From positions 1-52,743 of IMG/VR virus record IMGVR_UViG_3300044628_000447: 52,743 bases of DNA; one strand, written 5' to 3'. A model generated the notes under the pieces. It made no database searches and was not told the origin of the DNA. It saw only the letters and a list, made by a program, of their open reading frames with translations. Below, one piece after another: positions 2,424-51,925 of the stretch; within the stretch, counting starts at the first letter, position 1, and the number at the start of each line of letters is the position of its first letter. The position numbers and the translations under genes were made by a program. The stretch is from a virus (lineage: Duplodnaviria; Caudoviricetes).

Positions 2424-2965
2424 TCGCAGGAGTAAACTGTGTCGTGTAATTTGAGTCGCGGTAAATTATCGTTTACGATAAAGCTGGCATCTCGAAATGT
2501 GATTCTGTTCGTGGGTTGTATTGTGAGCCTGCCGTTGTCTAGCTTGATAAAGTAAAAATCTTTATCTTGCTCTGGCGTATCGCTCCATCCGTCATTAACA
2601 TGGGTGACGTTGAACAGATACTCCCCAGACAAGATTACATCATTGATTTTAACCTGCATTCGCAGACCGCGCAGGTGAGGGTTTGCGAGCGTGGTGAAAT
2701 CGTATGAGTAGCAGTCCCACAGTTGTGCTTGCTTGATAGACCACTCATTACCTTTTTTAGAAAACGAAATAGCATGAGGGGGAACGTTACGATACATCGC
2801 ACCACCGTCACGAAGAATGACGTTAATTCCCCAAGCTCTTCCGGGGATACTTGTGATGCCCACCCACATCGCCTCAACGAATCCACACGGTTCTTGATGC
2901 GTGTAACGCGAATCAATATGCACATACTGATGGACAGGGATATTTCCAATCTTTGAGAAGATCAT
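2420..2965 (-). CDS. Phage hypothetical protein
   Basis: 181 aa, overlap-coupled to the glycosyltransferase. Confidence 0.75.
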   Translation of the reverse strand: MIFSKIGNIPVHQYVHIDSRYTHQEPCGFVEAMWVGITSIPGRAWGINVILRDGGAMYRNVPPHAISFSKKGNEWSIKQAQLWDCYSYDFTTLANPHLRGLRMQVKINDVILSGEYLFNVTHVNDGWSDTPEQDKDFYFIKLDNGRLTIQPTNRITFRDASFIVNDNLPRLKLHDTVYSCE

Positions 2966-3171
2966 TTCTCTAGGATTACTTTTTCTTTGATTTTTGATCC
3001 ATCACAAAAACAGAACATTTCTTCTGCTTCTTCAAGCGAATCGTAAGAGGCTTGATGATACATGCTGAAATACATATCCGCCCATTGCCACAATGTCCAT
3101 ATATTGCGTTGTTGAATCACATACTGTTTTCTTCCATTTTGGAAGGTTCTTTCAATAATTCGCGCTTTCAT
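2962..3171 (-). CDS. Hypothetical protein (probable start MKARII)
   Basis: ORF in operon with ATGA overlaps. Confidence 0.65.
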   Translation of the reverse strand: MKARIIERTFQNGRKQYVIQQRNIWTLWQWADMYFSMYHQASYDSLEEAEEMFCFCDGSKIKEKVILEK

Positions 3172-3410
3172 GCTACTGACTTGCTGCCTTTGCACTTCCA
3201 TTTTTTCCTCGACAGTCGGTTGGGGCTATTCGGGTCATTCTTCCAGTCACCTTTGATCTTTGCCGAACGCGCACAATACGCATCCCCCTTGGCCGTGCCG
3301 GGACGAATACGATCCTTGCCATCCTTCGCCTTTCCAGCCTGCCCATACTTGATTGTCTTTGTTCTACCTGTCTTTGGATTCTTAACTACCTTGGTAAATC
3401 TTTTTTTCAT
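3168..3410 (-). CDS. Small basic phage protein
   Basis: Lys/Arg-rich; YCARS...DPNSPNRLSRKKWKC pattern seen in aquatic phages. Confidence 0.75.
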   Translation of the reverse strand: MKKRFTKVVKNPKTGRTKTIKYGQAGKAKDGKDRIRPGTAKGDAYCARSAKIKGDWKNDPNSPNRLSRKKWKCKGSKSVA

Positions 3411-3476
3411 TTATATCAATTTATATGGGGTTATATATAGTTTACTACTAAAACGTATAAATTTAGTATAACTAAC

Positions 3477-3623
3477 CTACCGTTTCTTTGCAGTCTTCTT
3501 TGATTCTTTAAATGCTTTTGCAGTTGGTGCACCTTTTGAACCCGGCTTCCTCATCTTCTCACCGCTACCCGCTGCGATGCGTTTCTTTTTTGCATTGATG
3601 TTTGCGTATAGTCCTTTTTTCAT
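3477..3623 (-). CDS. Small basic protein (48 aa, not in ORF track)
   Basis: Manual translation MKKGLYANINAKKKRIAAGSGEKMRKPGSKGAPTAKAFKESKKTAKKR. Confidence 0.75.
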   Translation of the reverse strand: MKKGLYANINAKKKRIAAGSGEKMRKPGSKGAPTAKAFKESKKTAKKR

Positions 3624-3790
3624 TTCTTCTTTTTCTTTGACATTCCAGCTTCGGAGAGTGCAATCGCAATAGCCTGCTTGCGGCTTTTCACAATTGGAGC
3701 TTTCTTCGGGCCTTTAGGGTTTTTACCGCTATGTAGTTTACCAGCTTTGTATTCCCGCATAACTTTTGCTATTTTCTTTTTACCTTTCAT
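3620..3790 (-). CDS. Small basic protein, DUF6496-like (56 aa, not in ORF track)
   Basis: Manual translation MKGKKKIAKVMREYKAGKLHSG...VKSRKQAIAIALSEAGMSKKKKK. Confidence 0.75.
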   Translation of the reverse strand: MKGKKKIAKVMREYKAGKLHSGKNPKGPKKAPIVKSRKQAIAIALSEAGMSKKKKK

Positions 3791-4119
3791 AATTCAAATC
3801 CTTCCATTCCATCTCGTAACAGTTTAAAGAACAGGTCAGCCGACATGGTAACTTTCCAGTCCTTGTTAGATTTTTTGTGTGCGACAATCCAAGGTTTTCC
3901 GCCACCATCCCTCATAGCTTGTTCGCAGGCTTTATCAAGATTAAGATTCTCCACGAATTTAACTTCTTGATGGAGACTGGAAAGCTCTTCGCATATTACG
4001 TCTGGACTGTCTTGGCCTCCAGCGTATTGCTGACCACGGCGAGCGGTGAAGCCTTCTTTCCTAAGCTCATCTCGCCAAAGACGTTCACCGCGCTTTCCTT
4101 TTTGTCGGGAGTTAATCAT
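3787..4119 (-). CDS. Holliday junction resolvase, PD-(D/E)XK Hjc-like
   Basis: NSRQKGKRGER...SPDV...QEVK motifs. Confidence 0.8.
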   Translation of the reverse strand: MINSRQKGKRGERLWRDELRKEGFTARRGQQYAGGQDSPDVICEELSSLHQEVKFVENLNLDKACEQAMRDGGGKPWIVAHKKSNKDWKVTMSADLFFKLLRDGMEGFEL

Positions 4120-4460
4120 TTTTTATCCTTCTTGATTTCTTCTACACCAGAGCGGAGTTCAGACACGACTCCAAACTTATCGTTCTCATAATCAATCTCG
4201 GCTAAATCAATAGCCCGTTCGGCGATGTATATTAGCTCTTTAATTTGCTCCCGCGCCTCGTCGCGCTCTTTGGCTATTCTTGCAACATCACTATTTGCTG
4301 CCATGCAAAGCTCAAGTTTATGTCGCGCCTCGTCGCGCTCGCGCTCTAAACGCTCACACGTTGCTTTTAATAGGAAAGACCATTGCCCATTAGAGGCGAT
4401 TACCGCTGCTTCTGTTTCTGGTGTGTCCATTTGAGTAATGTTAGAACGGGTTGAGTTCAT
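4116..4460 (-). CDS. Hypothetical protein with TPETEA and ERERDEAR modules
   Basis: Two ERDEAR repeats shared with ORFs at 50717 and 51390. Confidence 0.7.
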   Translation of the reverse strand: MNSTRSNITQMDTPETEAAVIASNGQWSFLLKATCERLERERDEARHKLELCMAANSDVARIAKERDEAREQIKELIYIAERAIDLAEIDYENDKFGVVSELRSGVEEIKKDKK

Positions 4461-4962: not shown

Positions 4963-6192
4963 TTATTCTTCTAGTTTACTGATTTCACCGTTCATCTTTA
5001 CCGAAAAGGACACATTCCTTGGCCCTCTACGATTCTTGTCAATGTATATGCAGGACTTGTCATCCTTGTGCTTAATGTGGATTACCGCATTTGAGTGCTG
5101 CTTGATTGCGCGGGACTCGCGTAGCTTCCCTTCATCATTCAACTGACTGCCAGTTATCACAGGAGCCTTGATTCTTGTGGCGAGGTTCTTGAGCTTCCTA
5201 GCAATATCGGAGACTGTCTGTTCGCGGGACTCGCTGGTTTCGTTCTCCACGATCTGGATATAGTCAACGATTACCACATCTGCTTTTCCAAGGAGGGATA
5301 GTCTCTGTGATTCCGCGATTATGGAGTCTAGGTCAAGAATATCGTCAACGATAGTCAGTGGCATGTCTCTGATTTCCAAGATTGCCTTACTGATTTTTGG
5401 AATCTCCCTTGAATAAATTGTCCGGTATTCTTCCGCAGCCCGAACCGGGATACCAGCATAGGATGCAACGAATCGCTCCAAGATGTCTGTCTTATCCATC
5501 TCAAGTGAGAAGTAAGCTACGCTTTTGTTTTCAAGAATATTAGCTAAACCAGCTTGAACCATGTAGATAGACTTACCACCACCCGATTCAGAGGCTACTG
5601 TCAATAGTTCCCCTTCGTGCAGCCCACCTTTCATCTTGCTATCGAGGTTGACTAATCCCGTCTTATACTTCGTTCTCTCTTGAGCCCCCTCCATCTGGTC
5701 GATAAGCTGCCCAGCGATTTCCTTCACGCTTGATAGGTTTGGCGATTTATCATTCTGACTAGTGGCAATCTTATCGGCTATGTCCTTCAAATCCGCCTTG
5801 GCAAGCTGGATGTCCCTCCTGTTATCCTCGATGATCTTGAGCGTGTCTCGGTATCCCTTGTAGCGGATTAGGTCTTTCCGATAATCGTTGGCCATCTCGA
5901 TTACTATGTCAGATGGTTTCATTTTGTGAGCTGAGAGAATGTCATATACTGCATTCTCCCCACCGATGATTTCTAGCTTCCCGTTTTTGGATAGTTCTGC
6001 AATGGCTGAGAACTCGCTTGTGTCCCCTGTCCGCTGGTATGTATCTCGGAGAGCTTCAAAGACGGTTCTATGGGCATCTATGGCGAAATAATCCACATCC
6101 CAGATTTGTGTAGCTAGGATGTTTGGGTTGCTTGCGATCAGAGATAGTGCTCCCACTTCTCCGAGGTGGAATATTGGTGTGTCTGTGTTCAT
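4963..6192 (-). CDS. dnaB: DnaB-like replicative helicase
   Basis: Walker A ASESGGGKS, YFSLEM, Walker B VIVDYIQ, SQLN, LRESRAI, KNRRG. Confidence 0.92.
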   Translation of the reverse strand: MNTDTPIFHLGEVGALSLIASNPNILATQIWDVDYFAIDAHRTVFEALRDTYQRTGDTSEFSAIAELSKNGKLEIIGGENAVYDILSAHKMKPSDIVIEMANDYRKDLIRYKGYRDTLKIIEDNRRDIQLAKADLKDIADKIATSQNDKSPNLSSVKEIAGQLIDQMEGAQERTKYKTGLVNLDSKMKGGLHEGELLTVASESGGGKSIYMVQAGLANILENKSVAYFSLEMDKTDILERFVASYAGIPVRAAEEYRTIYSREIPKISKAILEIRDMPLTIVDDILDLDSIIAESQRLSLLGKADVVIVDYIQIVENETSESREQTVSDIARKLKNLATRIKAPVITGSQLNDEGKLRESRAIKQHSNAVIHIKHKDDKSCIYIDKNRRGPRNVSFSVKMNGEISKLEE

Positions 6193-6211
6193 TGGTTATC
6201 GGTTCCGATAA

Positions 6212-7282: not shown

Positions 7283-7672
7283 TCAATACTTTATTTCAAT
7301 TTTTTCTTTCCCTCCACTAGTCCACAGAGGAAGATCGTCTAAAAGGTTATCCCACACTTCGTTGCATTCCTCTGATGTTGGCATCTCGATAATGGAAATC
7401 TTTTTATCAAGAGTAGCCTCCTTCTCATCCACCCTGCACTCTAGGAAGTAAATCTTGCTGACATTTTCCATGAGAACGAAGATCACAGCTTCCCCGTTTG
7501 GTTTTACGCCAAGGGTAATGAAAGGCCCGTCTTCATCGCAAGTCTCGTAGTGAACAACCAGACCCTCACCCAGAATCTTAGACAGAGCTAGATTGGATAT
7601 GAGGACGGAAGCCTGCATTGATGTGAGGATGTAGGTGGAAATTTGGTCTACGAGTTCTTTTGCGTTGTCCAT
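7283..7672 (-). CDS. Hypothetical protein
   Basis: 129 aa, first gene of the leftward operon. Confidence 0.7.
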   Translation of the reverse strand: MDNAKELVDQISTYILTSMQASVLISNLALSKILGEGLVVHYETCDEDGPFITLGVKPNGEAVIFVLMENVSKIYFLECRVDEKEATLDKKISIIEMPTSEECNEVWDNLLDDLPLWTSGGKEKIEIKY

Positions 7673-7728
7673 TATCGATACCGATAATCTGAGTTCATGC
7701 TTGACCTGTCAACAAAAGTTTGTAGACT
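7672..7728. promoter_or_regulatory. Divergent control region: palindrome 7672..7687 plus rightward promoter TTGACC-N14-TG-TAGACT (7701..7728)
   Basis: Motifs read directly between divergent genes; a leftward TTGACA lies at 7707..7712. Confidence 0.6.
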
Positions 7729-7739: not shown

Positions 7740-8051
7740 ATGAGACTAGACCACCCACTGATTGGCGCATACGAAGCCTGCATGTCAACCTACGAAGAGT
7801 CAAAAAGGTTGAAGCAGTCTGGTAGGTTTGTGTTTGCCAAACAGCTTAAAGAGACAAGGGCAATGCTCGGTCTAACTTGCAGGCAGCTTGGAGGGTCAAT
7901 CGGGGTTACAGGACAACTTATCAGCCAAATTGAAACAACTGCCAAAAGTATCTTGAACCGAGATCAAGTCCAAAAAATTGTAGAACTATGCTCAAACGCA
8001 AAACACCCCTCCGCGCCAAATCTGGATTCAAAAAGCGAGGCGGGAAATTAA
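7740..8051 (+). CDS. XRE-family helix-turn-helix regulator
   Basis: LKETRAMLGLTCRQLGGSIGVTGQLISQIE matches the HTH_3 pattern. Confidence 0.8.
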   Translation: MRLDHPLIGAYEACMSTYEESKRLKQSGRFVFAKQLKETRAMLGLTCRQLGGSIGVTGQLISQIETTAKSILNRDQVQKIVELCSNAKHPSAPNLDSKSEAGN

Positions 8052-8302
8052 ACGCAGTCAGCGATAGGCGTAAGGAGCTAAACAAAGAATATGCATCAGT
8101 CCGTAGAGAGTATCTGCTATCAAGCTCAAGGTGTGAAGTCTGCGGGGGAGAAGCTACGGACATACATCACAAAAGTAAAAGGGGTAAGAACCTATCTAAC
8201 AAAGATACGTTCATGGCTGTTTGCCGCCAGTGTCATACCAACATCCACGACAATCCAGCGTGGGCAAGAGAAAAAGGATATTTGATTTATGAATATAAAT
8301 GA
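7988..8302 (+). CDS. Small HNH endonuclease
   Basis: CEVCG...DIHH...N...VCRQCHTNIH. Confidence 0.85.
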   Translation: MLKRKTPLRAKSGFKKRGGKLNAVSDRRKELNKEYASVRREYLLSSSRCEVCGGEATDIHHKSKRGKNLSNKDTFMAVCRQCHTNIHDNPAWAREKGYLIYEYK

Positions 8303-9166: not shown

Positions 9167-11974
9167 TCATTCGCCCCAGTCATCAGTAGCATAATCTTCC
9201 TCATCAGCAACTAACGCAGGCTTTTCATCTCTTGACCAAAACCTATTAGTTGGAACAGCTTTATCGGTTCCGATAAAAACAAGTCCGTTCTTTCTAGCGA
9301 TTTCTAAGGCGTATACAAATGAATCCGCGCAATTATCTACAAGGATTCCATTAGCATAATATACATTATCATTTTCGAGGACCAAGTTTAATACCCTTGC
9401 GTCCCTTGTTTCTTTTGATGATCGCACAACTTTTGGAGCAGCAAACGCGCTTCCTGTAAGGATCGCCGTTAAAATCTTTACCACATTCAGCACATTTATA
9501 GGTAACTGTTTTATACTTTTCACGATTTGCATTTTGGAAACAAGCCCCGCTACAATACTTGGATTTTGTTTTGTTTTGTGTGATGACTGGTTTTCCGCAT
9601 TGCTTGCAAGACCCATCAAACTTTTCACGTTTGAGAATGCTGTTGTATGCATGATTTCTATGCCACTCTCTTCCTTCTTCTGATGAGTGCCACTCTTTTG
9701 CCGCCTCTTGAGCAAGCTTAAGAGACTCCAAATTCCTTGCGTAATAATGTTGGTCTTTGAATCTTTCTTGCATATGCATCCGCATGTGTTCGGCTTTTGA
9801 AAGAAGCTCCATATTTTCAATTCTGTTATCAGTCCAATCGCCATTCTTGTGATGGATTTCAAGGCCATCAGGAATAGGCCCGTTGTGCTCAATCCAAATG
9901 ACTCGATGTAGAAGTCTCTCGCCCGTAGCCTTGTTCCAGTCTTGATAATATCGACCCGTTGTTTGAATGCCGTATTTGCGTCCGTTGTGAATAATGAATT
10001 TAGGATGTTCCATACAATTAGTCTTTCTTCAGACTCTATTGTATATGCGCCCGAAAGGTTGTCAAGCCTGACCCATCCATCTTCCCATGTAAAAACACGA
10101 TGTTTTCCTTTTCCTTCAAGAACTCTTCCATCACTAAATTCTACTTTGCATATTTCGTTGTGAATTTCATCATGGATAAAAGAAATTTTTGTTACACCAA
10201 AAGGAGTAATCACTTCATCTCCGGGCGTTAGATTTTCAATCTTTACTTGACCTTTTGGAGTCAAAATCAATGTTCCCTCAACAAAACAGTCTGGCGAGTA
10301 TCCAATTCGCGCCTTAAAATCATTCTTAGTCTCAATAGAAATCTTGCGAGTCTTTAGAGTATACCTTCTAAGGCAAAGCTCTCTACCAAGCTCGCTGGCA
10401 TAATCAATTCCCCATATCGTTCTACTTTTGAATCCGTGATAGGCAGAATAGTGGAACTCGGATACAAGACGATCATAAACATCCTTACATGGACGCTTAT
10501 CCACATCCGCCGCGATACGGTCAGTCGGCCTACCCATAGAAGAGATTAGAACAATACTATGTCCATTTTGGTCATACTTTAGCCACTCTCTGATAATAGC
10601 CTGCCCAACCCTACCGCCATCACCGGACACGTCCATACCAAATCTCTTTGGCTCAACACCAGCTTCTCGGCAGATACGGACAACTTCAGTAGCAAGTTGG
10701 TTCTCAAATTCAGCAGTCTCTCTAGCGGAAAGCTGGATAACGTGCTGTTTCTCCATAAACATTACTTTGTTTTGAGTCCCGCGAACATATCCAAGTTTGG
10801 CTATTGTAAGCACGCACCTATCGCCTCCAGCGGTAAATGCAGTATCAAATCCCGCTACTTTGGTTAATCCCTCTGAAGACCACAATGGTTCATCTGCGGT
10901 GTTGGCGTTACGTATCAAGTCGCTAGTAAGAATGGTCTGAGCAAAGCCAGCCTTTGGCCACCAGCCAATAGCGTTACGAACATAGTCAACAGCATTCTCA
11001 TCACCGTAGCACTGCCGCAACATCTGAGCCTGCTTTGTCCTATCCATTAGGAACGGGAATGGTGGAGGCTCATTAGATGGTGCTTGAAAGTTTGGCGAAC
11101 GCATGCCGTTATAGAACAAGCAAACGCCTGTCTCGGTTTCCCACTTGTCCATGTCCATTGACACGCTTTCAAAGTTAGCCTGCCCTCTTGGAAGACACCA
11201 ACGTGTATGCGGATTGTCACCAGAAGATGGGTTGCCGATACCGATAAACACCTTATCGTCGTTAGAAGAAAGGTTGACTTTACTTGTCAACGCACCCATC
11301 TCCATTTCTGGCAACTCATCAAGGGCCAATCGAATCCTACTGTTCTTACGACCACGGGTTGTGTCAATAGCCTTCTGTCCTTCGTTACCTTGAGGGAATG
11401 CCAGAGCTTTAATAGCGTTACTGTAGTCCTTTTGGTCTCCACCGTCTCCACCTCCCCATACGATCATGTGGCGGTAGTCCATTAGGTTTCCAATCTTAAT
11501 CCGCGAACACTTCCATAGCTTTGAGATGATACCCCAGATACGATCCTCGGACGCACCGATAGTCGTAGTGGCAACCCAAGAAGATGTGCAGGTAGGAGCG
11601 GAACACCAATCAAGAAGAATCCAAAGACCAACAGGAAACGACTTACCCATAGATGCGGCTCCAGCAAGAACCACGTCATCATTATTGCAAAGCTCTTCAA
11701 TAGTTCTAAGAAGCTGAGTATTCATGTAGCCTCTTGATTTTATAGACACATCGTTAGGCCACTGAAATTGAACTGCTTTAATAAAATGCTCGAATGGAGT
11801 CAGTAACTTAAAGTCGCCTAGATCAATATTATTCTTAATGCAATAAGTTCGGCCATACTGACCACGGGTTATTGAGTAGCAGAACAATTCAATACTCAAA
11901 TCGTCCATTGTGTCTGGAAAAGCCATCCCGTATTTATTGATCGTTTTCTTGCTTGACATAATTCCATTTAACAA
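9167..11974 (-). CDS. terL: Terminase large subunit with intein
   Basis: Walker A GAASMGKS, Walker B LALDE, GNP coupling motif, RNase H-like GFDTA..GGD and SPD|CAD; true start may be ATG 11959. Confidence 0.9.
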   Translation of the reverse strand: MLNGIMSSKKTINKYGMAFPDTMDDLSIELFCYSITRGQYGRTYCIKNNIDLGDFKLLTPFEHFIKAVQFQWPNDVSIKSRGYMNTQLLRTIEELCNNDDVVLAGAASMGKSFPVGLWILLDWCSAPTCTSSWVATTTIGASEDRIWGIISKLWKCSRIKIGNLMDYRHMIVWGGGDGGDQKDYSNAIKALAFPQGNEGQKAIDTTRGRKNSRIRLALDELPEMEMGALTSKVNLSSNDDKVFIGIGNPSSGDNPHTRWCLPRGQANFESVSMDMDKWETETGVCLFYNGMRSPNFQAPSNEPPPFPFLMDRTKQAQMLRQCYGDENAVDYVRNAIGWWPKAGFAQTILTSDLIRNANTADEPLWSSEGLTKVAGFDTAFTAGGDRCVLTIAKLGYVRGTQNKVMFMEKQHVIQLSARETAEFENQLATEVVRICREAGVEPKRFGMDVSGDGGRVGQAIIREWLKYDQNGHSIVLISSMGRPTDRIAADVDKRPCKDVYDRLVSEFHYSAYHGFKSRTIWGIDYASELGRELCLRRYTLKTRKISIETKNDFKARIGYSPDCFVEGTLILTPKGQVKIENLTPGDEVITPFGVTKISFIHDEIHNEICKVEFSDGRVLEGKGKHRVFTWEDGWVRLDNLSGAYTIESEERLIVWNILNSLFTTDANTAFKQRVDIIKTGTRLRARDFYIESFGLSTTGLFLMALKSITRMAIGLITELKIWSFFQKPNTCGCICKKDSKTNIITQGIWSLLSLLKRRQKSGTHQKKEESGIEIMHTTAFSNVKSLMGLASNAENQSSHKTKQNPSIVAGLVSKMQIVKSIKQLPINVLNVVKILTAILTGSAFAAPKVVRSSKETRDARVLNLVLENDNVYYANGILVDNCADSFVYALEIARKNGLVFIGTDKAVPTNRFWSRDEKPALVADEEDYATDDWGE
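9332..10288 (-). mobile_element. Intein (319 aa) in the TerL nuclease motif
   Basis: Block A CFVEGTLILT, block B KGKHRVF, C-terminal YYANGILVDN followed by extein Cys+1. Confidence 0.9.
9369..10013 (-). CDS. HNH homing endonuclease nested out of frame inside the intein
   Basis: LHRVIW..HNGPIP.GLEIHHKNG...DNRIENMELLS..EH (HNH_3-like) plus CxxC...CSxxC Zn fingers; -1 frame relative to TerL. Confidence 0.88.
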   Translation of the reverse strand: MEHPKFIIHNGRKYGIQTTGRYYQDWNKATGERLLHRVIWIEHNGPIPDGLEIHHKNGDWTDNRIENMELLSKAEHMRMHMQERFKDQHYYARNLESLKLAQEAAKEWHSSEEGREWHRNHAYNSILKREKFDGSCKQCGKPVITQNKTKSKYCSGACFQNANREKYKTVTYKCAECGKDFNGDPYRKRVCCSKSCAIIKRNKGRKGIKLGPRK

Positions 11975-11994: not shown

Positions 11995-12369
11995 ATGAAA
12001 TTGAAAGACCCTAAATTGTCTCCTGTCGGCGGATGGTTCTATCGTTACGAACTGACTAAAGGGACACTGAAATTTCCAGCTACCGTTTACGGAAGCACAT
12101 TTAGCAATCTCATTGCGAACGTAAAAAAAGATATGGATGTAAATCAGTATCCAATTCCAGCAACCCTTGCTGATGATATTGAGCATCAGATTTGTCTTAG
12201 GCAACCAGAAGGAAGATGCTGGATGCAAACAGGCGACACTGTTGCAAATGTTATACACGGCATCGCTCGCGTCATAGACAAAGCAACAGGAACAAAACTA
12301 GAGAAAAAGGCAAAGGGTTGTGCTGCTTGTGGAAAGCGCAGGCAGAAACTTAACACAATGTTTTCTTGA
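11995..12369 (+). CDS. Hypothetical protein with C-terminal CxxC
   Basis: GCAACGKRRQKLN; first gene of the structural operon. Confidence 0.7.
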   Translation: MKLKDPKLSPVGGWFYRYELTKGTLKFPATVYGSTFSNLIANVKKDMDVNQYPIPATLADDIEHQICLRQPEGRCWMQTGDTVANVIHGIARVIDKATGTKLEKKAKGCAACGKRRQKLNTMFS

Positions 12370-12400
12370 CTAACTCATTATCGTTTACGATAACTATACA

Positions 12401-18786: not shown

Positions 18787-18787
18787 T

Positions 18788-40522: not shown

Positions 40523-40628
40523 AGTTATCGAAATCGATAATAAAAAAATCTGAAAAAAAGTATTGACCCAAATAAACAGACTCAATATATCTGTTGCCAC
40601 TCTCGCAATACCAACGAGGGTAAAACCA

Positions 40629-40784: not shown

Positions 40785-40972
40785 ACAACCTAAAACAAAA
40801 GAAACTCCAAGAGGAATCATACCTTCGACTGATCGAGGCGGCTGCCAACCAAGGCAAGTTTAACCCCGAAGAATTGAAGAGCGCGAAAGACGTGCTCGCT
40901 CTCGCCAAGCATTATAAAGGCATCGCTGAAATTGTAACAGCTACTTACCTTGAGGGGGATGAAGACAAATGA
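40781..40972 (+). CDS. Hypothetical protein
   Basis: 63 aa, overlap-coupled. Confidence 0.65.
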   Translation: MNNLKQKKLQEESYLRLIEAAANQGKFNPEELKSAKDVLALAKHYKGIAEIVTATYLEGDEDK

Positions 40973-41302: not shown

Positions 41303-42057
41303 AATCATCAGGACATTGGTATGACATCAACGGGGAGGCTAGGCACACTATCCTCTCAGCTAAAGGAGAACCACGTTCCACTACTCTACGTGACGCGAAG
41401 AAGCACGGATGGTTTCCAAGTGTGACTACAGTAATGAAGGTATTGGCATCACCGGAGCTTGACCGCTGGAAACAGAATCAAGTTTTCATGGCCAGCCTAA
41501 CCCTATCAAGATTCCCAAATGAATCTGATGAGCAATACTGTGCAAGGATCATCGAAGACGCATTTAAGCAGGTATCGGATGCGGCAGACTTAGGAACAGA
41601 GATTCACAAAGCTCTTGAGAATCATTTCCAAGGTCTACCCTACGCACCGCACATGGAGCCATACGTTGCACCTGTTAAAGAATGGGTGTCGCAGAATAAT
41701 GTCCGCTTCCTAAAGCACGAACTACGGTTAGTGAACAGTGAAGTAGGCTATGCGGGAACAACCGATGCTCTCATTGAGAAGGACGGAATCCTTCATATCT
41801 TGGACTATAAATCAAGAAAGACGAAACCAGAATACAAAATTGCGCCATACGGCAAAGAACCAATGCAGATTGCAGCTTATGCCAAGATCGCTGGAGCCAG
41901 CCGAGGCGTGAACCTCTACATCTCTACCACAGAACCGGGAAGAATCGGTGACGCATGGTATGATGAAGAGACACTAGAATCTGAGTTTGAGGCGTTTAAA
42001 AGCGTATGCAAACTCTGGCAGCACATAAACAAATACAAACCAAAACAAAACCAATGA
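41284..42057 (+). CDS. PD-(D/E)XK exonuclease (RecB/Cas4-like)
   Basis: PSVTT, GTEIH, YAGTTD, LDYKS, QIAAY. Confidence 0.85.
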   Translation: MRIMPIESSGHWYDINGEARHTILSAKGEPRSTTLRDAKKHGWFPSVTTVMKVLASPELDRWKQNQVFMASLTLSRFPNESDEQYCARIIEDAFKQVSDAADLGTEIHKALENHFQGLPYAPHMEPYVAPVKEWVSQNNVRFLKHELRLVNSEVGYAGTTDALIEKDGILHILDYKSRKTKPEYKIAPYGKEPMQIAAYAKIAGASRGVNLYISTTEPGRIGDAWYDEETLESEFEAFKSVCKLWQHINKYKPKQNQ

Positions 42058-42860
42058 GCCAACTAGCAAACATAGAACAGAAAGAAGTAATTAAATCCGT
42101 AACTGGAAAGATCACGAAACTTTGGGAGCCTAAAGAATTTACTGGGCCTAAAGGAAAGTTTGAAATCCAAGGCGGTGAGATTGAAATTGACGGGCAACGC
42201 TACGGACTGAAGTTCTTTGAGAACAACCAGAACGCGAGCATCCTTGAAGGGAAAGTAGTCACCATCTCTTGCTCCCGTGGCAAGCATGGTTTCACCGGAG
42301 TTACCCTAGACCATGAATCCTTCTCCAAGAAGGACGGCACAAAGGTAGACCGTGACGTGATTAAAGTAACCAAGACGGGTAAGGTTGAGCTTGGGGAGGC
42401 AGATGCCATTCCAATGACTCACAGCACCGATACACCCAAGCAGACTATCGGAACCGATAACTCTGATAAAACCTTGGATGACCTAGTAATGCAACATCTC
42501 TACGTCAACGACCTAGTAAGGGCAGCATACGCCAAGAAGGGCTACGACGAAGAAACGCTTCGCTCCTACGTGGCATCGGTATTTATCGAGGCTAACCGCA
42601 AGGGGATTCACATCGGGGAGACAAAGAAAGAGGTTGAGCCAACCTACGACCCCGCTGACTGGGCATCGGCAATCGTCCCAAGTGGAACAAACAAAGGCAA
42701 AACACTGGCATCAATCGGTAAGCCAGCGTTGAAAAAACTGTATGCCTTTTACCTCGAAAAAGGGTTTAACACGCCATTCGCAAAGTGTGTTGAGCAAGCA
42801 GGTATCGACCTAAACATTTATGAGGCTGGAGATGATGATCTTCCAGATGTGGAATGGTAA
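42054..42860 (+). CDS. Putative ssDNA-binding/annealing protein
   Basis: OB-fold-like N-terminus, acidic aromatic tail DDDLPDVEW, follows the exonuclease. Confidence 0.55.
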   Translation: MSQLANIEQKEVIKSVTGKITKLWEPKEFTGPKGKFEIQGGEIEIDGQRYGLKFFENNQNASILEGKVVTISCSRGKHGFTGVTLDHESFSKKDGTKVDRDVIKVTKTGKVELGEADAIPMTHSTDTPKQTIGTDNSDKTLDDLVMQHLYVNDLVRAAYAKKGYDEETLRSYVASVFIEANRKGIHIGETKKEVEPTYDPADWASAIVPSGTNKGKTLASIGKPALKKLYAFYLEKGFNTPFAKCVEQAGIDLNIYEAGDDDLPDVEW

Positions 42861-43114
42861 CATACGATCAACTCACAAAAGCCACGAAGATCAAGATGAA
42901 GAAAGAGAAAGTTACGACTGACATTCTAGTAAAGTTGCTCAACACTTTCTTGCCAGACTCAGAGAAGATTCCACAAACTCGATCTGGACAGGTTCAAGTA
43001 TCACGATGGCTTAACCCTAACTCAGAATATCATTGCATTCCAAGGGCTGGTATCGCTCTAGCTATGGTTCAATGGACATACGGATTAGTATTACTACCAC
43101 CAGATGAGGTATAA
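42854..43114 (+). CDS. Hypothetical protein, possibly HTH DNA-binding
   Basis: QVSRWLN...P pattern resembling an XRE-like recognition helix. Confidence 0.5.
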   Translation: MVTYDQLTKATKIKMKKEKVTTDILVKLLNTFLPDSEKIPQTRSGQVQVSRWLNPNSEYHCIPRAGIALAMVQWTYGLVLLPPDEV

Positions 43115-43349
43115 CATAAGCACTAAGCAGGAAGACTTGCCAATTAGAGACTTGTGGTGCGCTGTTATTCAACAAGCGTATGAAGACACAAAATTAATTG
43201 ATAAGCGTTTTCAGTGTGAATCAAGAAACAAACAAAACCAAATGGATCACGACTCAGCAATCCAGTTTTTCAAAAGTGACTTCTTTGAAAGACTTTGTGA
43301 ATGCCTATCACTCGATTCAAACTCAATAAAATCAAAAGCCTTAACATGA
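43104..43349 (+). CDS. Phage hypothetical protein
   Basis: LW.AVI.QA..D...A..FF....F...C pattern. Confidence 0.65.
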   Translation: MRYNISTKQEDLPIRDLWCAVIQQAYEDTKLIDKRFQCESRNKQNQMDHDSAIQFFKSDFFERLCECLSLDSNSIKSKALT

Positions 43350-44326
43350 AAAAGAAAAAGCAACTAATGTTTATGTCTCCTGTAGATGAGGGAGAATTGG
43401 TAAATCAAGATAGATACTTGGTAGAAGTATTAGCTTGGGCACAAGCTGAATACCAAGGAATTAAGCTCACCATAGACCACATCAGAAAGTTGTTTAATAT
43501 GGTGCAGAGAGATGAATACCCCGGCGACAGTGTGCCAGACGAAATCGTTCTCATTTACGAGAAACTAGCTGGTGACTTGGAGTATGCAGAAGAACTAGCA
43601 GAAGATCAAATCGAGGTTGTAGAACCTGTAACAGAAAACAAAATGGAAGTATCAAAAGAAAGCAAAGAATCGTTGGCCCTAGTAAATAGTATCTCAGACG
43701 GGATTGAACTATCATCCTTCTCTAAGAAGTTTGACTTGGGAGAAGGAATGACACAGTGCGTTCCCCGTGGCGATGTAACCATGCAAGACTGGGTTGCAGC
43801 GTTTGGGTTCGGTCTAGCATTGGAGTCTGGTAGCCAGTGGATTATCGGTGATGCCGTGGTTGCGCTGGAGAATGCTGGACACGATGACGTAGTTAATCAA
43901 CTGTGCGGTAAGTTTAAGAAAAGCTACAGCACAGTGTCCGGTTATGCCCGTGCCTGCCGTGCATTTGAACATGGTAAGCGTGACCCTATGCTTCCCTTCT
44001 CAGTTTACAGGGAGATTGGAAACGCTAGTTTCGGAACAGCGCAAGAAACGCTCAAAAAGCAAAGTTTGCTTTTGGAACAAGCGAAGAGCGAGCAATTGTC
44101 TAGCACGGAGGTTCGCAACCGAGTCAAAGAGGAACAAGGTAAAAATGTTGACAGGCCACAGCCGCACCGTTACCTTCTTCTCAATGTCGGCAACACCAGT
44201 AACTCGGAAGTGCTTACTGAAATGCCAGAACAAATTGAACCACACCAATTACTTATCGACCTCGCAGGAAAGCGTTGGTTCGATCCAGCAAATGGGGAGT
44301 TTCTAAATTTCATTAAAGGAAAATAA
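43346..44326 (+). CDS. Hypothetical protein with LmbU-like DNA-binding region
   Basis: QWIIGD...YSTVSGYARACRAF...R...LPFSVYREI resembles the LmbU family. Confidence 0.55.
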   Translation: MKKKKQLMFMSPVDEGELVNQDRYLVEVLAWAQAEYQGIKLTIDHIRKLFNMVQRDEYPGDSVPDEIVLIYEKLAGDLEYAEELAEDQIEVVEPVTENKMEVSKESKESLALVNSISDGIELSSFSKKFDLGEGMTQCVPRGDVTMQDWVAAFGFGLALESGSQWIIGDAVVALENAGHDDVVNQLCGKFKKSYSTVSGYARACRAFEHGKRDPMLPFSVYREIGNASFGTAQETLKKQSLLLEQAKSEQLSSTEVRNRVKEEQGKNVDRPQPHRYLLLNVGNTSNSEVLTEMPEQIEPHQLLIDLAGKRWFDPANGEFLNFIKGK

Positions 44327-45785: not shown

Positions 45786-47423
45786 TTACTGCAAGATATT
45801 TTTTGTGGAGATAGCTAAAGAAATTGATGGGTCACATTCCCCATCCATGAGTAAATCCATGCGTTTTATCTTCTTATCCAATGAATTACAAGTATCCTCC
45901 TCAATCGGAACTCCAGCCGCATACACGATGTATTGCAGACTTTTTGTGACGCCTCCCGCCCTGTGAACCCTTCCTAGAACTTGACGAAGATCGTATGCGC
46001 TTGGTTGAGGAAATATCAAAGAAACTCTTGGATGCTTCCCGTTCAAGTCATGGAGTGAAATTCCCTCCCTACATGCGGCAGAAATTCCAATTATCACACG
46101 GGCCTTGTCTCTCTGGAAAGAATCAATTGCTCCCTGCCTTTCCATTTTAGATTGACCTCCGCAAATTACTGCATCGGTATTTAGCTCTTTCATCAAGAAC
46201 TCCATTGTTTCACGGAAAGATACCGCTATGAATATACTATTTCCTTCTTCAAGATAATCCTTTGCCAATGAAGCAACTGAAGGCGATTTCAACAATTCTA
46301 TTTTTTGCCTTGCTCGTGTTTGTTCTGCTAAAACATTCGCACTAAAGTTTTCAGCGTGTCGCAGTTCTTCAACTCGCAGGCATAGATCATCATATTCTGA
46401 AGCAATGGCGCGAGTGTTTTCCATGTCAAAGGCTCTTGCGGCTATTAAAGTATCTGGAAATTGATCACCTAAATCAGAATGCCTTAGTCGATTCCCTCTC
46501 TCTGGATAAATTTTATGGTGAAGCCGTTTTAAGTAGTGATTGCCTCCTTGGAACTGAAAACCAAATCTTGTTTTTTTGCAACCATTAGAAGATAAAAACC
46601 TATAGTAATCTTTGCCTCCTTGGTGTAATCCAAGAAATTGGCCCAAGGCCCAAAGTTTTGTTGGATCATCTGCTATAGTTGCGCTCAAGGCTATTGCTTG
46701 AACGTCTTGAACAACGCTATCCCTTATTAGAAATGAGTTTTGGGAAGTCCCATTTGCTTTTCCGCGATGGCATTCGTCAAATATAAGTATAACATCATTA
46801 GGTATTTCATAAATAAACTTTTTCTTTTCAGAGCAAGACCATTTCCCTATTTTTGACTTTCCTGTTTTACAAAATTCCCAACCAACCGCTTCATATATTT
46901 CAACATTCATCGTTTTTGCGGCCCTATACCATGAAGTAACTACTGCAAGCGGACAAATTACAGCAACCCGCTTTCCTAACTCCCGCGCAATGCCGAGGGC
47001 GCAGAATGTTTTGCCGACACCCGTAGAATGACCCAAAAGCACCCGATTGTATTTCTGGATACTACGCACGCCGAGAGCCACTGATGTTTTCTGATACTCA
47101 AAGAGGACGGAATCATTGATAAGCGGAGGCAGCACAATTTCCTCGGCTGGCTCGTTATCGGAGTCGATAACATTGTCTAAAGGAACGTGCTTGAACTTGA
47201 GATCAGAATCACTCCACCAAGTCAGCGTCCACTCGCCACTGTATTTAGAAATAGAGATACCCGCATCTCGCATGGTTTGACGGTGAAATTCTTGATTCTC
47301 TTTGTAAAGCGGCCACCAATCAGAATCGATGGGAGCCTTTTTAAGCAGGCGGACACCGTTCTTGGTATTAAGCTGGATAGGATGAGACCACTCCAGCCGA
47401 GAGATAAGCTCGTGCGTTGTCAT
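45786..47423 (-). CDS. Superfamily 2 helicase
   Basis: HSTGVGKT, IFDECH, LSAT, EGISL, QVLGRVHRAG. Confidence 0.9.
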   Translation of the reverse strand: MTTHELISRLEWSHPIQLNTKNGVRLLKKAPIDSDWWPLYKENQEFHRQTMRDAGISISKYSGEWTLTWWSDSDLKFKHVPLDNVIDSDNEPAEEIVLPPLINDSVLFEYQKTSVALGVRSIQKYNRVLLGHSTGVGKTFCALGIARELGKRVAVICPLAVVTSWYRAAKTMNVEIYEAVGWEFCKTGKSKIGKWSCSEKKKFIYEIPNDVILIFDECHRGKANGTSQNSFLIRDSVVQDVQAIALSATIADDPTKLWALGQFLGLHQGGKDYYRFLSSNGCKKTRFGFQFQGGNHYLKRLHHKIYPERGNRLRHSDLGDQFPDTLIAARAFDMENTRAIASEYDDLCLRVEELRHAENFSANVLAEQTRARQKIELLKSPSVASLAKDYLEEGNSIFIAVSFRETMEFLMKELNTDAVICGGQSKMERQGAIDSFQRDKARVIIGISAACREGISLHDLNGKHPRVSLIFPQPSAYDLRQVLGRVHRAGGVTKSLQYIVYAAGVPIEEDTCNSLDKKIKRMDLLMDGECDPSISLAISTKNILQ

Positions 47424-47652: not shown

Positions 47653-48231
47653 ATGGTAAATCCGAAAAGTGCGGTGAAAAAATGGGACTGGGGAAAGCTT
47701 GAAGCTCTGATAATATCTGGAAAAAGCCCAAAGGAGATATGCGCCTTACCGGAGTTTGAAGGGCTAAACGTGCGGTATCTGCAAAACATATCGGCAAGGA
47801 ATGGCTGGGTTAAGAAACGGAGGGAAGTTGAAGCGGCAGCACTGGCGGGAATGGAAAAGGGTATCATTGATAAACGAAGTGCAGGCGTGGAGGAGCACCA
47901 TAAGTTTGTATTCGGACAATTGGAGCGGTTGCGGAGTGCCATAGCTGAGAAGCAGGTTAAGGGAAGCGTGAAAGAATTGCGGGAGTATCTGGATATGTTG
48001 CAGAAGTATCTTGATGCGGCGGAAACAAGCTACGGTTTAAAGGCTGACCAAGTAAGAGATGAATCGGCAGTGAGTCTAAATGCAATGGTAGCATTGCATA
48101 TCATCCCGCCAAGTAGGGCGAGCGAAATGCAAGTTGTTGAGGCTGAAATTATTGCAGCCAATGCAGAATGCCAGAAAGTCATAAGTGACAAGGGAAGTGA
48201 AAGCACTTGCGAGGAAGGTGAAAGAGAGTAA
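47653..48231 (+). CDS. Candidate terminase small subunit
   Basis: N-terminal HTH-like WDW...GKSPKEI...GW, helical middle and acidic tail; isolated + strand gene near the non-coding region. Confidence 0.5.
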   Translation: MVNPKSAVKKWDWGKLEALIISGKSPKEICALPEFEGLNVRYLQNISARNGWVKKRREVEAAALAGMEKGIIDKRSAGVEEHHKFVFGQLERLRSAIAEKQVKGSVKELREYLDMLQKYLDAAETSYGLKADQVRDESAVSLNAMVALHIIPPSRASEMQVVEAEIIAANAECQKVISDKGSESTCEEGERE

Positions 48232-48624: not shown

Positions 48625-48748
48625 AGGTTAATGAATATAAGGGCTGTTATTACGATTGAAAGAATGAGCAAAAGGCTGAAAAAGCGGTCCTTTGCGCGGT
48701 CATACTGTAGTTTGCTGTGTAGTTTATTCATGTTATTGTTTCCGATAA

Positions 48749-49099
48749 TCAAAACGATGAAACGATGATGCCGCCCTCAAACTCGATAAGTTGGCCTCGG
48801 TCTTGAATATAATCGCGGATGGCAGAATCAAACGCATCATCATCAATCTCCTCCTCCTCATTAAAGCCAAGCTCTTGCCAAGCGTTAGAGAAGTAATCAT
48901 GCGCCCAGTCCTGCAGGCTCTCATATTCTGAGTAATCGCAACGTATGGCTACGGCGTCAAACTCGATGGCTTCCCCGCAATCGTCTTCCATTTGCTCTAA
49001 ATACTCAACGAGGGCAAAAGCTCCAGCGATAGAGAAAGAGCTGTTTTCGTCATCGGCGAGCATTTGAGCGGCTTGTGTAGTGGATAGTGTGGTTTTCAT
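48749..49099 (-). CDS. Acidic phage hypothetical protein
   Basis: FS..G..AL.EYLE...IEFD.VAI.CDYSEY pattern. Confidence 0.7.
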   Translation of the reverse strand: MKTTLSTTQAAQMLADDENSSFSIAGAFALVEYLEQMEDDCGEAIEFDAVAIRCDYSEYESLQDWAHDYFSNAWQELGFNEEEEIDDDAFDSAIRDYIQDRGQLIEFEGGIIVSSF

Positions 49100-50356: not shown

Positions 50357-50499
50357 GATAAGTAATCTTTTAATTCTTGGAGGGTTTTGGTGTCATTCTT
50401 CTCTAGGGCGGTGAAGTAGGCTTCTTGGGACTTCATTTCGACTATATACTCCATGGCCCTGTGTAGTTCTTCTAGCCTGTCTTTTTGTTCTTGAGTCAT
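50341..50499 (-). CDS. Hypothetical protein (52 aa, not in ORF track)
   Basis: Manual translation MTQEQKDRLEELHRAMEY...; ATGA overlap upstream. Confidence 0.55.
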   Translation of the reverse strand: MTQEQKDRLEELHRAMEYIVEMKSQEAYFTALEKNDTKTLQELKDYLSWKTT

Positions 50500-50720
50500 T
50501 TCATTCCGAATATTTTCATTAGATCGTCCACGGAGTTGGAGTTGTGGATTGTCCTTGGTTCATCATCTTCCCCGTCGTAGAATGCTATATCCCATGTTTG
50601 GTTGAATAGTTTCCTTATACCAGCGGCGGATAGGGTTACTTTACCGTCCCCCGCGAAGGATGGGTTTTTCTCTACGTATTTAGCCCATAGTTCACTCTTC
50701 TTCATTTCCTTGAGTCTCAA
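50496..50720 (-). CDS. Hypothetical protein
   Basis: 74 aa ORF in operon. Confidence 0.65.
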   Translation of the reverse strand: MRLKEMKKSELWAKYVEKNPSFAGDGKVTLSAAGIRKLFNQTWDIAFYDGEDDEPRTIHNSNSVDDLMKIFGMK

Positions 50721-51214
50721 TTAAAGTTCTCGTCTCTGAACTTGCGGGTTAGCTCTCTAATAGCATCACCTGTGTGGAGAACATTGATGTCATTGTATAG
50801 CTTAATTAGTAATGCCCTATACTCATCTCTCTCATTCTCCGCTCTTGCTGCCATCTCTACCGCGCATTCCCACTTGTTTTTCCACCCTTCTATTTCATGC
50901 TTCGCCTCGTCACGCTCTTGCCTTGTTTTATTCAGAATCTCCCATGCCTCAACTTCGCACCTGTAGGTATGAATTGCGTTTAGTGCTTCGTCCCGCTCAT
51001 TGCATAACTTATTAACTTCAAGCATATTTTCTGTTGCGAGAATGTCATATTTCTTCTGTGTCTCGTCGCGCTCGCGTTCCAACCTTCTGCAAAGGTCTTC
51101 AAGCGATTCCCCTCTAGCCGCAGATAAGCAGGCATCCGTCTCTGGCGTGCTGGATGGCGCGGAAAAAAATTGCGCCACCGGATTTTCGGAGCCTTTAATT
51201 ATTTCAATTTTCAT
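50717..51214 (-). CDS. Hypothetical protein with TPETDA and four ERDE modules
   Basis: Repeated ERERDE/ERDEA modules. Confidence 0.7.
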   Translation of the reverse strand: MKIEIIKGSENPVAQFFSAPSSTPETDACLSAARGESLEDLCRRLERERDETQKKYDILATENMLEVNKLCNERDEALNAIHTYRCEVEAWEILNKTRQERDEAKHEIEGWKNKWECAVEMAARAENERDEYRALLIKLYNDINVLHTGDAIRELTRKFRDENFN

Positions 51215-51393
51215 TCCCCGTCCTCCTTCCACCGCCATGTTGTGCCACCTTCGGCATCAACAACCCACTCTGCGAAACCTCGTTTTACCGCCTCAACCTT
51301 CAATTCATCCCGTTGCCAAGCAGCCCCAAAAGCTGCGATTATCAAAAAGATAACGCCTAGTGTAGTAATCCATTCGATTGCAAGTTTGCTCAT
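51211..51393 (-). CDS. Small membrane protein (paralogue of 40969..41163)
   Basis: TM segment then AVKRGFAEWV...GTTWRWKED. Confidence 0.7.
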   Translation of the reverse strand: MSKLAIEWITTLGVIFLIIAAFGAAWQRDELKVEAVKRGFAEWVVDAEGGTTWRWKEDGE

Positions 51394-51653
51394 TTCCCGC
51401 CCTCCTTGAGTTGGTCAAGTTCGGCGCGGAGGATACCTTGTGCATACGAAAACTCTCCGTATCCTTCTGTATGAGGGATTGCTTCAATCGCCCTCTTTGC
51501 AATGTTACGAAGCTTTGCGTTTTGCTTCCGCGCCTCGTCGCGCTCGCGTTTTGACTTCTCGGCTTGATCCATGTAGTAGTGTGATTGTTCCTTGTAAAAA
51601 TCCGCCATTCGCACCATATTTTCAATTATATCAGGTGTATCATTATTTTTCAT
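51390..51653 (-). CDS. Hypothetical protein with ERDEAR module
   Basis: Probable start MKNNDTP. Confidence 0.65.
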   Translation of the reverse strand: MKNNDTPDIIENMVRMADFYKEQSHYYMDQAEKSKRERDEARKQNAKLRNIAKRAIEAIPHTEGYGEFSYAQGILRAELDQLKEGGK

Positions 51654-51907
51654 TGGTTTATTTTCTCCTCTATCCTTTGTAACCATATTGGTTTTCCGTT
51701 TTCATCAACTTGGTTTCTGATCACTTTTTTCTTTTTGTAATGTTTTTTCCTATTTACACGTATGTCTCGGTAGGGCCACGAATCTGTAAAGCTCTCCACG
51801 GTTATAGACCTGTGCTTGTTTAGGCAAACTCTTTTCCTATAAGTTACCCCGTCTACCTTCCTGCTTTCAATGACATTTGTTTTTGATTTGCACTTTGGAC
51901 ATATCAT
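51650..51907 (-). CDS. NrdR-like Zn-ribbon protein lacking an ATP cone
   Basis: MICPKC...T.VIESR...RKRVC...H...TVE matches the NrdR N-terminal ribbon. Confidence 0.7.
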   Translation of the reverse strand: MICPKCKSKTNVIESRKVDGVTYRKRVCLNKHRSITVESFTDSWPYRDIRVNRKKHYKKKKVIRNQVDENGKPIWLQRIEEKINQ

Positions 51908-51925
51908 TTTATCGGTTCCGATAAT

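Follow-up and report, generated by a model that had tools for sequence, protein, structure and literature searches.

What reads a short palindrome that recurs, inside and between genes, around an entire phage genome, and to what end? The question is raised by IMG/VR virus record IMGVR_UViG_3300044628_000447 (Duplodnaviria; Caudoviricetes), whose full 52,743 bp are analysed here and referred to as the window, and by the word TTATCG-N4-CGATAA scattered along it. The record is a complete phage genome with direct terminal repeats of 127 bp, and its source is an uncultured phage of lake water; window DNA was found in 24 lake or wastewater DNA runs, all of them assembled contigs, and no RNA run was listed. 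The sites form a real, strongly selected, family-wide set of palindromes, termed here the lattice, and judging from the DNA they most likely serve as docking sites for a protein.

An earlier note on this DNA had listed 14 perfect copies of the word, and all 14 were recovered in place, compared with none in 100 dinucleotide shuffles (mean 0.00, largest 0). When up to two mismatches were allowed, 26 matches were obtained in the window against a shuffle mean of 1.89 (largest 6), and spacer lengths other than 4 gave 0–3 matches. The core ATCG-N4-CGAT occurred 20 times, every one of them as TATCG-N4-CGATA. Altogether, 19 sites in the window were considered credible members of the lattice. Among the near-perfect copies that had also been proposed, those starting at 21552, 24002, 27930 and 42445 were kept at orthologous places in relatives, whereas those at 14166 and 14589 were attributed to chance, the former being free of mismatches in none of 68 aligned relatives and the latter having fewer than two mismatches in none of 69. 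The near-copy at 48733 has one mismatch within the core, and a core site at 5339, inside the gene for a DnaB-like helicase, had been overlooked.

The excess of the word survived the codon-preserving control that the earlier note had called for. Over 500 rounds of synonymous shuffling of the 54 genes of at least 80 amino acids (aa), with the protein and the per-gene codon usage kept, means of 0.26 full and 0.48 core sites were obtained (maxima of 2 and 3), compared with 7 full and 12 core sites inside these genes in the window. Nine of the 11 in-gene sites encode I-x-x-D-[NKI] and two encode L-S-x-x-I; the peptide VIDSDN does occur in both the scaffold and the helicase, as had been observed. 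Eight of the 19 sites lie outside genes of at least 80 aa, that is, in 14.7% of the genome (binomial P 0.0036), and the intergenic sites typically span the interval from a stop codon to 0–12 nt before the next start. Site-to-start distances were bimodal (7–20 nt or 50–125 nt), which led us to reject a fixed activator position, and scans of the window for sigma-70 promoters and terminators stayed at chance level with no consistent association with the sites.

The lattice is shared by the whole phage family. Relatives were taken, with flanks, as the best 80 of 196 IMG/VR capsid matches (77–92% identical), and their DNA was ~70–79% identical to the window where alignable. All 80 loci contained the full word and none of them the reversed control word, while complete genomes carried 16–25 core sites each (23, 23, 16, 21 and 24 in the five complete relatives, G001 to G005, as counted alongside a control of 0). 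At orthologous sites, the arm columns were 0.98–1.00 conserved, synonymous third positions included, compared with 0.73–0.84 for the flanks, and the spacer letters varied between relatives. Both the presence of the word in relatives and the reduced synonymous variation had been proposed as checks in the earlier note, and the lattice came through both; read from these alignments, the palindrome arms are under purifying selection down to their synonymous positions. A scan of IMG/VR with one exact 16-mer returned 114 stretches, of which 112 were new loci, and 99 of these encode proteins of the window's phage family. The 13 loci without family proteins carried one core site (11 loci) or two (2 loci), which we take to be chance copies.

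The sites are also more evenly spaced than random placements in all six complete genomes, with coefficients of variation of 0.52, 0.54, 0.63, 0.58, 0.44 and 0.52 compared with ~0.93 for random sets (P from <0.0002 to 0.016), and the largest site-free gap in these genomes is 6.6 kb. The run of sites at about 3 kb that had been pointed out in the window is real (intervals of 3065, 3117, 2903, 3184 and 3087), but the exact period is not kept in relatives, partly because the large terminase of the window is ~320 aa longer than theirs, with a Hint/intein match. Such even coverage, combined with placement that is flexible and cheap, points to a function for which a site is required somewhere every few kilobases and not at a fixed distance from a promoter.

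Regarding the anatomy of the word, 127 sites of the pattern NTATCG-N4-CGATAN were pooled from the six genomes. Position 7 was T or G in 123 of the 127 and position 10 was A or C in 121; the outer positions, which the pattern leaves free, were T in 89 and A in 97, and the central spacer positions 8 and 9 were mostly A/T. From the base preferences at positions 7 and 10 and in the centre, the word can be read as two 7-bp half-sites, TTATCG[T/G], flanking an A/T-rich centre of 2 bp, which places the half-site centres, by sequence, 10 bp apart on one face of the helix. No dependence was seen between positions 7 and 10 (Fisher P 0.41), and among 12 sites with two arm mismatches, 10 were non-compensatory and two compensatory; the lack of pairing covariation indicates that pairing is not under selection, and a hairpin was rejected on this ground. 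This supports, although indirectly, a duplex site with dyad symmetry that is read by a dimeric protein. The proposal in the earlier note that a dimer binds all around the genome agrees with this picture of a genome-wide and family-wide duplex site with selected arms, but its choice of the XRE-type protein as the binder did not hold up. Its other readings, in which the sites serve a host factor, packaging or ejection, are kept as alternatives. On the sense strand, a central AA was preferred over TT (P 2e-6) and both orientations were used; this preference follows the A>T skew that coding strands show in general and was not taken as functional polarity. As a separate observation, individual genomes prefer particular spacers, namely TTAA at 16 of 25 sites in G005 (L209–L211), TCAA at 11 of 24 in G001 (L197–L199) and GAAC at 5 of 20 in the window, which may reflect tuning to each genome's binder or a concerted spread of copies.

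Since the arms are invariant, the protein that reads them must be universal in the family and must present a conserved recognition surface. The candidate ranked first is p341 (43346–44326, plus strand; 326 aa), which has a ParB/Noc/LmbU-like helix-turn-helix (HTH) and is a predicted homodimer. It is present in five of five complete relatives, and all of its 678 homologues are unnamed; its HTH stretch, with the recognition helix KKSYSTVSGYARACRAF, is invariant in 27 sequences. An AlphaFold2 model of p341 was obtained with a predicted local distance difference test (pLDDT) score of 80.5, and the top Foldseek matches of this model in the PDB were the DNA-binding domains of ParB, Noc and Spo0J (6t1f, 7nfu, 1vz0, 6s6h), with probabilities of 0.8–0.99 (0.99 for 7nfu), TM scores by target of 0.35–0.54 (0.54 for 6s6h) and E values of 0.05–0.9. 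The ESM Atlas gave the same ParB-like lead. At the sequence level, residues 145–275 matched positions 11–133 of the 171 in the NCBIfam model NF038070 (LmbU family) with an E value of 1e-6, at 28.8 bits, which does not reach the family cut-off of 125 bits. No Pfam match of any kind was obtained for p341 at E up to 0.05, neither to the ParB N-terminal CTP-binding domain (PF02195) nor to HTH_ParB; a PHROG search of p341 gave no match, a PDB sequence search returned nothing, and the matches in BFVD were uncharacterised phage proteins only.

When p341 was modelled as a homodimer, the prediction scored 0.68 compared with 0.00 for the best control; of the proteins solved as pairs, 20 of 30 attained this mark, as did one of 23 solved as single chains. 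The dimer runs agreed in at least 73% of contacts with pLDDT of at least 70, and the predicted interface comprises the invariant helices at 149–174 and the C-terminal beta domain. This modelling supports the formation of a p341 homodimer.

A profile search with p341 yielded 199 cluster representatives, among them homologues with different recognition helices, such as P0139, P0143, P0131 and P0153, the last of which lies on a 59.5-kb contig. A further representative, P0130, was traced to a 52.8-kb metagenome contig, 21 kb of which (L214; guanine-cytosine (GC) content 55.5%) shares with the window only p341 (33% identity), p205 (30%) and p86 (41% over 44 aa) within those 21 kb. L214 carries 14 copies of TATCG-N4-CGATA, one of them ~50 nt upstream of the p341 homologue, and this homologue retains YSTVSG[FY]AR. 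Another distant homologue of p341, P0213, has the p341-type HTH fused to an N6/N4 DNA methylase domain, which hints that other systems employ this HTH domain to direct enzymes to particular DNA words.

Several results weigh against p341. Its structural and family matches lie below significance or curated cut-offs (Foldseek E of at least 0.05; 28.8 of 125 bits for LmbU), and none of the six family orthologues of the p341 gene has a site within 300 nt upstream. The XRE-type protein and p205 are likewise universal in the six genomes, and p205 occurs in L214 as well. Finally, arms that stay invariant across phages whose proteins are 30–60% identical would also suit a conserved host factor. In the overall ranking of binders, p341 was placed first, the XRE-type protein and a host factor next, and nucleases and p205 after them. 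Other proteins were tried and rejected: the O-like initiator and the NrdR-like zinc ribbon were each found in one of five relatives, p129 in three of five at 20–28% identity, and p86 (42854–43114, Cro/YdaS-like by eye) was absent from G002 to G004, which retain the lattice.

Our preferred explanation, which we hold tentatively, is that the sites are docking points for a phage-encoded homodimeric HTH protein, most likely p341, loaded at about 20 places. A p341 homodimer would dock on a duplex of the type TTATCGKWWMCGATAA, with TTATCGGTTCCGATAA as the putative target and the half-site centres one helical turn apart. Loading at ~20 sites would leave no stretch longer than ~6.6 kb without one, and, if the exact place matters little, selection could park the sites cheaply in tiny intergenic gaps or in I-x-x-D-N and L-S-x-x-I codons. 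The purpose would then be genome-wide and not promoter-specific, for example, to coat or bridge the chromosome, to act by silencing at long range or by roadblocking, or to mark the DNA as self, as with KorB/OB, Noc/NBS and stoperators. Among the window proteins scanned, no lysogeny genes were seen, which makes classical immunity silencing unlikely; no match to an integrase or ParA was found among them, small open reading frames (ORFs) being covered only in part, and a KorA- or ParA-like partner was likewise not detected among them. The absence of a CTPase domain from p341 leaves KorB-like sliding unsupported.

When compared to known systems, the 17-bp dyad repeats of the Cluster O mycobacteriophages are the closest published case. 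In Corndog, the 69.8-kb genome contains TGTTCGG-N3-CCGAACA 34 times, the arms being invariant and the centre A/T-rich; of these copies, 14 are located between ORFs, 10 close to 5′ ends and 10 within genes (PMC4351075). In the accessible part of that report, the Cluster O phages are described as not temperate, the repeat as absent from the host and its function as not known, and its authors predict a dimeric binder and a non-promoter role (PMC4351075). Ryadel carries 31 copies of the Cluster O repeat, according to the part of its genome announcement that was available (PMC6439249), and this announcement, which repeats the observation, was the only item on the Cluster O repeats found in the literature since 2016. 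A literature search with the motif letters returned primers and unrelated operators only, and in further searches the Cluster O paper was the sole relevant item. The two cases are alike in their invariant arms, short variable A/T-rich spacers, tens of copies genome-wide and non-temperate-looking phages, as well as in copies that fall in tiny gaps, at gene starts and in gene interiors, at similar positions in relatives. They differ in architecture, with 7-bp arms and N3 in Cluster O compared with 6–7-bp arms and N4 or N2 here, and neither the word nor the phage lineage nor the habitat is related. In the window family, a test for even spacing was positive, and the lattice is conserved down to ~30% protein identity. 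The ParB_N protein gp90 of Corndog was tried as a homologue of p341 and rejected (hhalign probability 0.3%; the only Pfam match of gp90 is ParB_N).

By analogy, the nearest mechanistic model is KorB with its OB sites, 12 of which lie on RK2. As far as the consulted part of the source goes, KorB/OB on IncP RK2 is similar in that a replicon of comparable size carries, at scattered places, a palindrome read by a dimeric ParB-type HTH protein, and that it acts at a distance and not just at promoters (PMC11790492). In contrast, KorB has a CTPase domain, whereas p341 has no detectable ParB N-terminal CTPase domain and its fold matches are not significant. LmbU, for its part, uses a central HTH to bind the palindrome CGCCGGCG and assembles into homodimers, as stated in the portion consulted (PMC6510168); the central HTH of p341 matches the model of this family (E 1e-6), but LmbU is a local activator of an actinomycete biosynthetic gene cluster and not a genome-wide phage factor. 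As for the stoperators, with which the lattice had initially been compared, the resemblance lies in the more than 20 copies of a short word across a phage genome, many of them in short intergenic spaces. In the strict sense, the window sites do not belong to this class: stoperators are described, in the part of the source consulted, as 13-mers that are asymmetric, follow the direction of transcription and bind a monomeric immunity repressor in temperate Cluster A phages (PMC9283540), whereas the window word is palindromic, half of its copies lie in genes and no lysogeny genes were seen.

The Cluster O repeats have been in print since 2015 with neither a binder nor a purpose assigned, in phages with no sign of lysogeny. 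The present case adds a very large uncultured freshwater family, with 196 capsid relatives and 678 p341 homologues, and names one concrete candidate, so that a 326-aa protein and a 16-bp duplex would be cheap to test against each other. If the binder were confirmed, the role of the lattice, be it silencing, compaction, self-marking or nuclease control, would become directly testable. The word itself could mark this phage family for recognition and binning, and it already reveals a phage contig misfiled in an archaeal metagenome-assembled genome (MAG).

Among the rivals of p341 docking, the XRE/Cro-type HTH protein (7740–8051, plus strand), a second or third choice, would act as the binder in the manner of a stoperator-like global repressor, which we regard as unlikely. 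It has a canonical HTH (Pfam HTH_31, E 8e-6), occurs in five of five complete relatives with a recognition helix conserved in 51 sequences, and in the window a lattice site falls in its divergent promoter region, the observation for which the earlier note had made it the best cognate. Cro/C1-type dimers bind palindromes of this size. The promoter site is not general, though, since a core site lies within 300 nt upstream in only six of 48 orthologues, and going by these loci it is a subclade feature. Instead, a different palindrome, ATTGACYTGTCAAT, is found in all 49 XRE upstream regions (the window and 48 related loci); it consists of overlapping −35 boxes, leftward TTGACA-17-GATTAT and rightward TTGACC-16-TAGACT, and is present as a single copy in the window. 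These back-to-back boxes (TTGACCTGTCAA, 7701–7712) lie outside the lattice, and ATTGACYTGTCAAT is likely, from its position and conservation, the natural operator of the XRE protein and a local switch. A repressor of this kind also has to be reconciled with the lack of an integrase or other lysogeny sign among the proteins scanned.

Equally improbable in our estimate is a reading in which a host protein, whether a transcription factor, a nucleoid protein or a Chi/RecBCD-like tamed nuclease, recognizes the word and the phage exploits or evades it. Even, genome-wide spacing fits such a reader, as do arms that are invariant across phages with GC contents of 44–55% and proteins down to 30–33% identity, and Chi-rich phages are on record, in the part of the report consulted (PMC12315714). 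The distribution of the word argues against a host reader: the Synechococcus myophage S-CAM7, which has a 72%-identical glycosyltransferase, carries no site in 216 kb, and the 13 exact-16-mer loci lacking family proteins have one or two core sites each. The word, with 12–14 specified bases and dyad symmetry, is also unlike known Chi words.

Another speculative reading, which we likewise consider improbable, extends p341 docking beyond this family. The p341-type proteins would be a partner-less, CTPase-less offshoot of the ParB/LmbU fold that lytic phages load on a ‘holocentric’ lattice of even spacing, lineage-specific words would match the recognition helices, and the Cluster O repeats and other lattices would be one system. 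Such loading might gather, shield or self-mark the replicating chromosome, for example, against the phage's own or host nucleases or for orderly packaging. If this were true, the Cluster O repeats would be an instance of a general and undescribed chromosome-organizing system of phages.

The sites could alternatively be targets of a phage nuclease or of recombination, involving p110 (3787–4119, minus strand) or the HNH protein at 7988–8302 and producing T5-like nicks or breaks or hot spots of module exchange, a possibility that we rate as quite remote. Dimeric PD-(D/E)XK enzymes cut interrupted palindromes. The 110-aa p110 is PD-(D/E)XK-like by eye, it is among the best-conserved small proteins (73–87% identity in 20 orthologues) and it is present in five of five complete relatives; its matches to Hjc and PDDEXK_15, however, are weak (E 0.03) and resolvase-like. 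Regarding exchange, a variant contig of run X7 joins position 18481 to 24661 and another contig matches the window only from 18462 onward, which weakly suggests that exchange can take place at sites, in this case the site at 18465–18480 on the border of the head and collagen-fibre blocks. Two deletions in Cluster O phages also fall between repeats, in the account available to us (PMC4351075). Nevertheless, the 18465 joint has 20 nt on one side only, and by a hand count about seven of 22 borders between conserved and variable genes lie no more than 200 nt from a site, a share not clearly above that of other borders. Contig joints in four runs were mostly at collagen repeats.

Even less probable are packaging sites read by p205 (47653–48231), a putative HTH/coiled-coil protein and possible small terminase with an N-terminal three-helix HTH followed by long helices. 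This protein is present in five of five complete relatives and in L214, where the p205 gene is flanked by two sites, one ending 1 nt before its start and the other beginning 22 nt past its stop. However, while the DNA word is invariant, the putative recognition helix of p205 shows poor conservation, with 13 invariant columns in 12 sequences, its model has a pLDDT of 63.6 with no fold match below an E value of 4, and the PDB sequence search returned nothing; moreover, fixed terminal repeats of 127 bp need one packaging signal, not twenty. Lastly, an RNA or single-stranded DNA hairpin acting as a terminator, a processing site or in translational coupling has scarcely any credibility, for although a 6-bp stem with a 4-nt loop is possible and eight sites lie between stop and start codons, the stem is invariant and does not co-vary, and the sites occur in genes of both strands, many of them deep inside, with no strand rule beyond the A>T skew.

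Returning to the lattice itself, several of its sites, exact unless indicated otherwise, occupy gaps between genes. The site at 6196–6211 fills the 19-nt gap from the stop of the O-like initiator to the start of DnaB, and G001 also has a site just before DnaB. The site at 7672–7687 overlaps the start codon of the gene 7283–7672 (minus strand) in the divergent region before the XRE gene. Between 11995–12369 and the portal gene lies 12378–12393, exact in 32 of 37 aligned relatives, and directly 3′ of the stop of 18192–18464, where the conserved head block meets the variable fibre block, lies 18465–18480, exact in four of six. A one-mismatch site at 24002–24017 fills the gap before the tail-fibre start at 24019, and G003 and G004 have orthologous sites ahead of their fibre gene. 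The site at 30245–30260 runs from a stop codon to the ATG of 30260–31219, its final A being the A of the ATG; a site is found just before this gene in G001, G003, G004 and G005, and in G002 the nearest one is just beyond the end of the orthologue of the upstream gene 30095–30244. The site at 40525–40540 is located in the gap between the gene for a 2001-aa protein and 40781–40972, and all six genomes have a site 56–229 nt upstream of the orthologues of the latter. Towards the right end, a weak and probable site (TTATTG...) at 48733–48748 fills the gap after the stop of 48749–49099 (minus strand), and 51909–51924 lies in the gap between the MazG-like gene 51926–52228 (minus strand) and the NrdR-like zinc ribbon gene 51650–51907 (minus strand).

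Other sites are situated within genes, some of them near the 3′ end. The site at 2466–2481 lies 46 nt before the stop of 2420–2965 (minus strand) and ~50 nt upstream of the glycosyltransferase start, with orthologous sites in G001 and G005. The one at 9261–9276 is 94 nt before the stop of the large terminase gene; its arms are exact in 38 of 40 aligned relatives, and it is found at ~aa 903 in G001 to G004. In the amidase gene, 22981–22996 is 101 nt before the stop, encodes LSLSI and has no or one mismatch in eight of eight aligned relatives, and 25637–25652 lies 106 nt before the stop of 25198–25758. Deeper within genes, the core site ATATCG-N4-CGATAG at 5339–5354 in the DnaB-like helicase gene is at the same codon (~aa 283) in G001, and 15281–15296, in the gene at the scaffold position, encodes VIDSDN and is exact in 16 of 19 aligned relatives. 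A one-mismatch site (CTATCG...) at 21552–21567 is 73 nt into 21479–22129, with no or one mismatch in three of three aligned relatives. The core site ATATCG-N4-CGATAT at 27930–27945 is 190 nt into 27740–29581; NTATCG-N4-CGATAN is kept there in 14 of 14 aligned relatives, and the site lies at ~aa 67 in all five complete relatives. Within the gene for the 2001-aa protein, 35710–35725 (~aa 435) encodes LSEPI and is at the same position in G001, G003 and G004. Another one-mismatch site, 42445–42460, is located in 42006–42860 (~aa 149), ~900 nt upstream of the p341 gene and at the same codon in G001 to G004. Finally, 47155–47170 in the helicase gene 45786–47423 (minus strand) encodes VIDSDN, and sites are found nearby (aa 83–95) in G004 and G005.

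The annotation of the window is otherwise sparse. The left arm, on the minus strand, encodes the glycosyltransferase, the DnaB-like helicase and the O-like initiator, followed by the weak XRE-type HTH at 7740–8051 and the large terminase. A long plus-strand block contains the portal, the scaffold and capsid positions, collagen-like fibres and the amidase, and the right part encodes an exonuclease, a helicase, an EndoVII-like protein, a dCMP deaminase, the MazG-like protein and the NrdR-like zinc ribbon. Neither the capsid protein of the window nor p341 had a tblastn match among 50,697 phage records, which indicates that there are no cultured relatives among them; blastn of the window matched collagen repeats only, and a tRNA search of the window found none.

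When considering links to other phages, the glycosyltransferase (1308–2423, minus strand) is 72% identical to a protein of S-CAM7 (L212), where its neighbours are a collagen-repeat ORF, a 2OG-Fe(II) oxygenase and a tail fibre, and the window has collagen-like fibre genes at 18788–25155 (plus strand). This shared glycosyltransferase/collagen context is suggestive of collagen-like fibres that are glycosylated and of gene flow involving cyanophages; a picocyanobacterium as host of the window phage is only a guess. The large terminase (9167–11974, minus strand) has 935 aa compared with ~610 aa in relatives (tblastn coverage of 0.60), and a Hint_2 (intein) match at aa 563–592 (E 2.4e-8), above the Pfam cut-off, indicates that it probably carries an intein. 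Two small basic proteins are encoded next to each other on the minus strand, at 3477–3623 (48 aa with 17 K/R) and 3620–3790 (56 aa with 20 K/R), and are 71–90% identical in relatives. Judging by this composition, they are possibly DNA-condensing or internal proteins and are unlikely to be sequence-specific, although they could act jointly with the palindrome lattice.

A scan of genome contigs with the glycosyltransferase turned up only a 51.8-kb contig of the window's phage family, L213 (G006:C3), inside a MAG labelled Candidatus Woesearchaeota. All 20 core sites of this 800-kb MAG were confined to L213, which is probably a misbinned phage and not a host link. For L011, L125 and L151, the record is listed at 52,743 bp like the window, yet they are ~76% identical to it, which is either a coincidence or a quirk of the listing.

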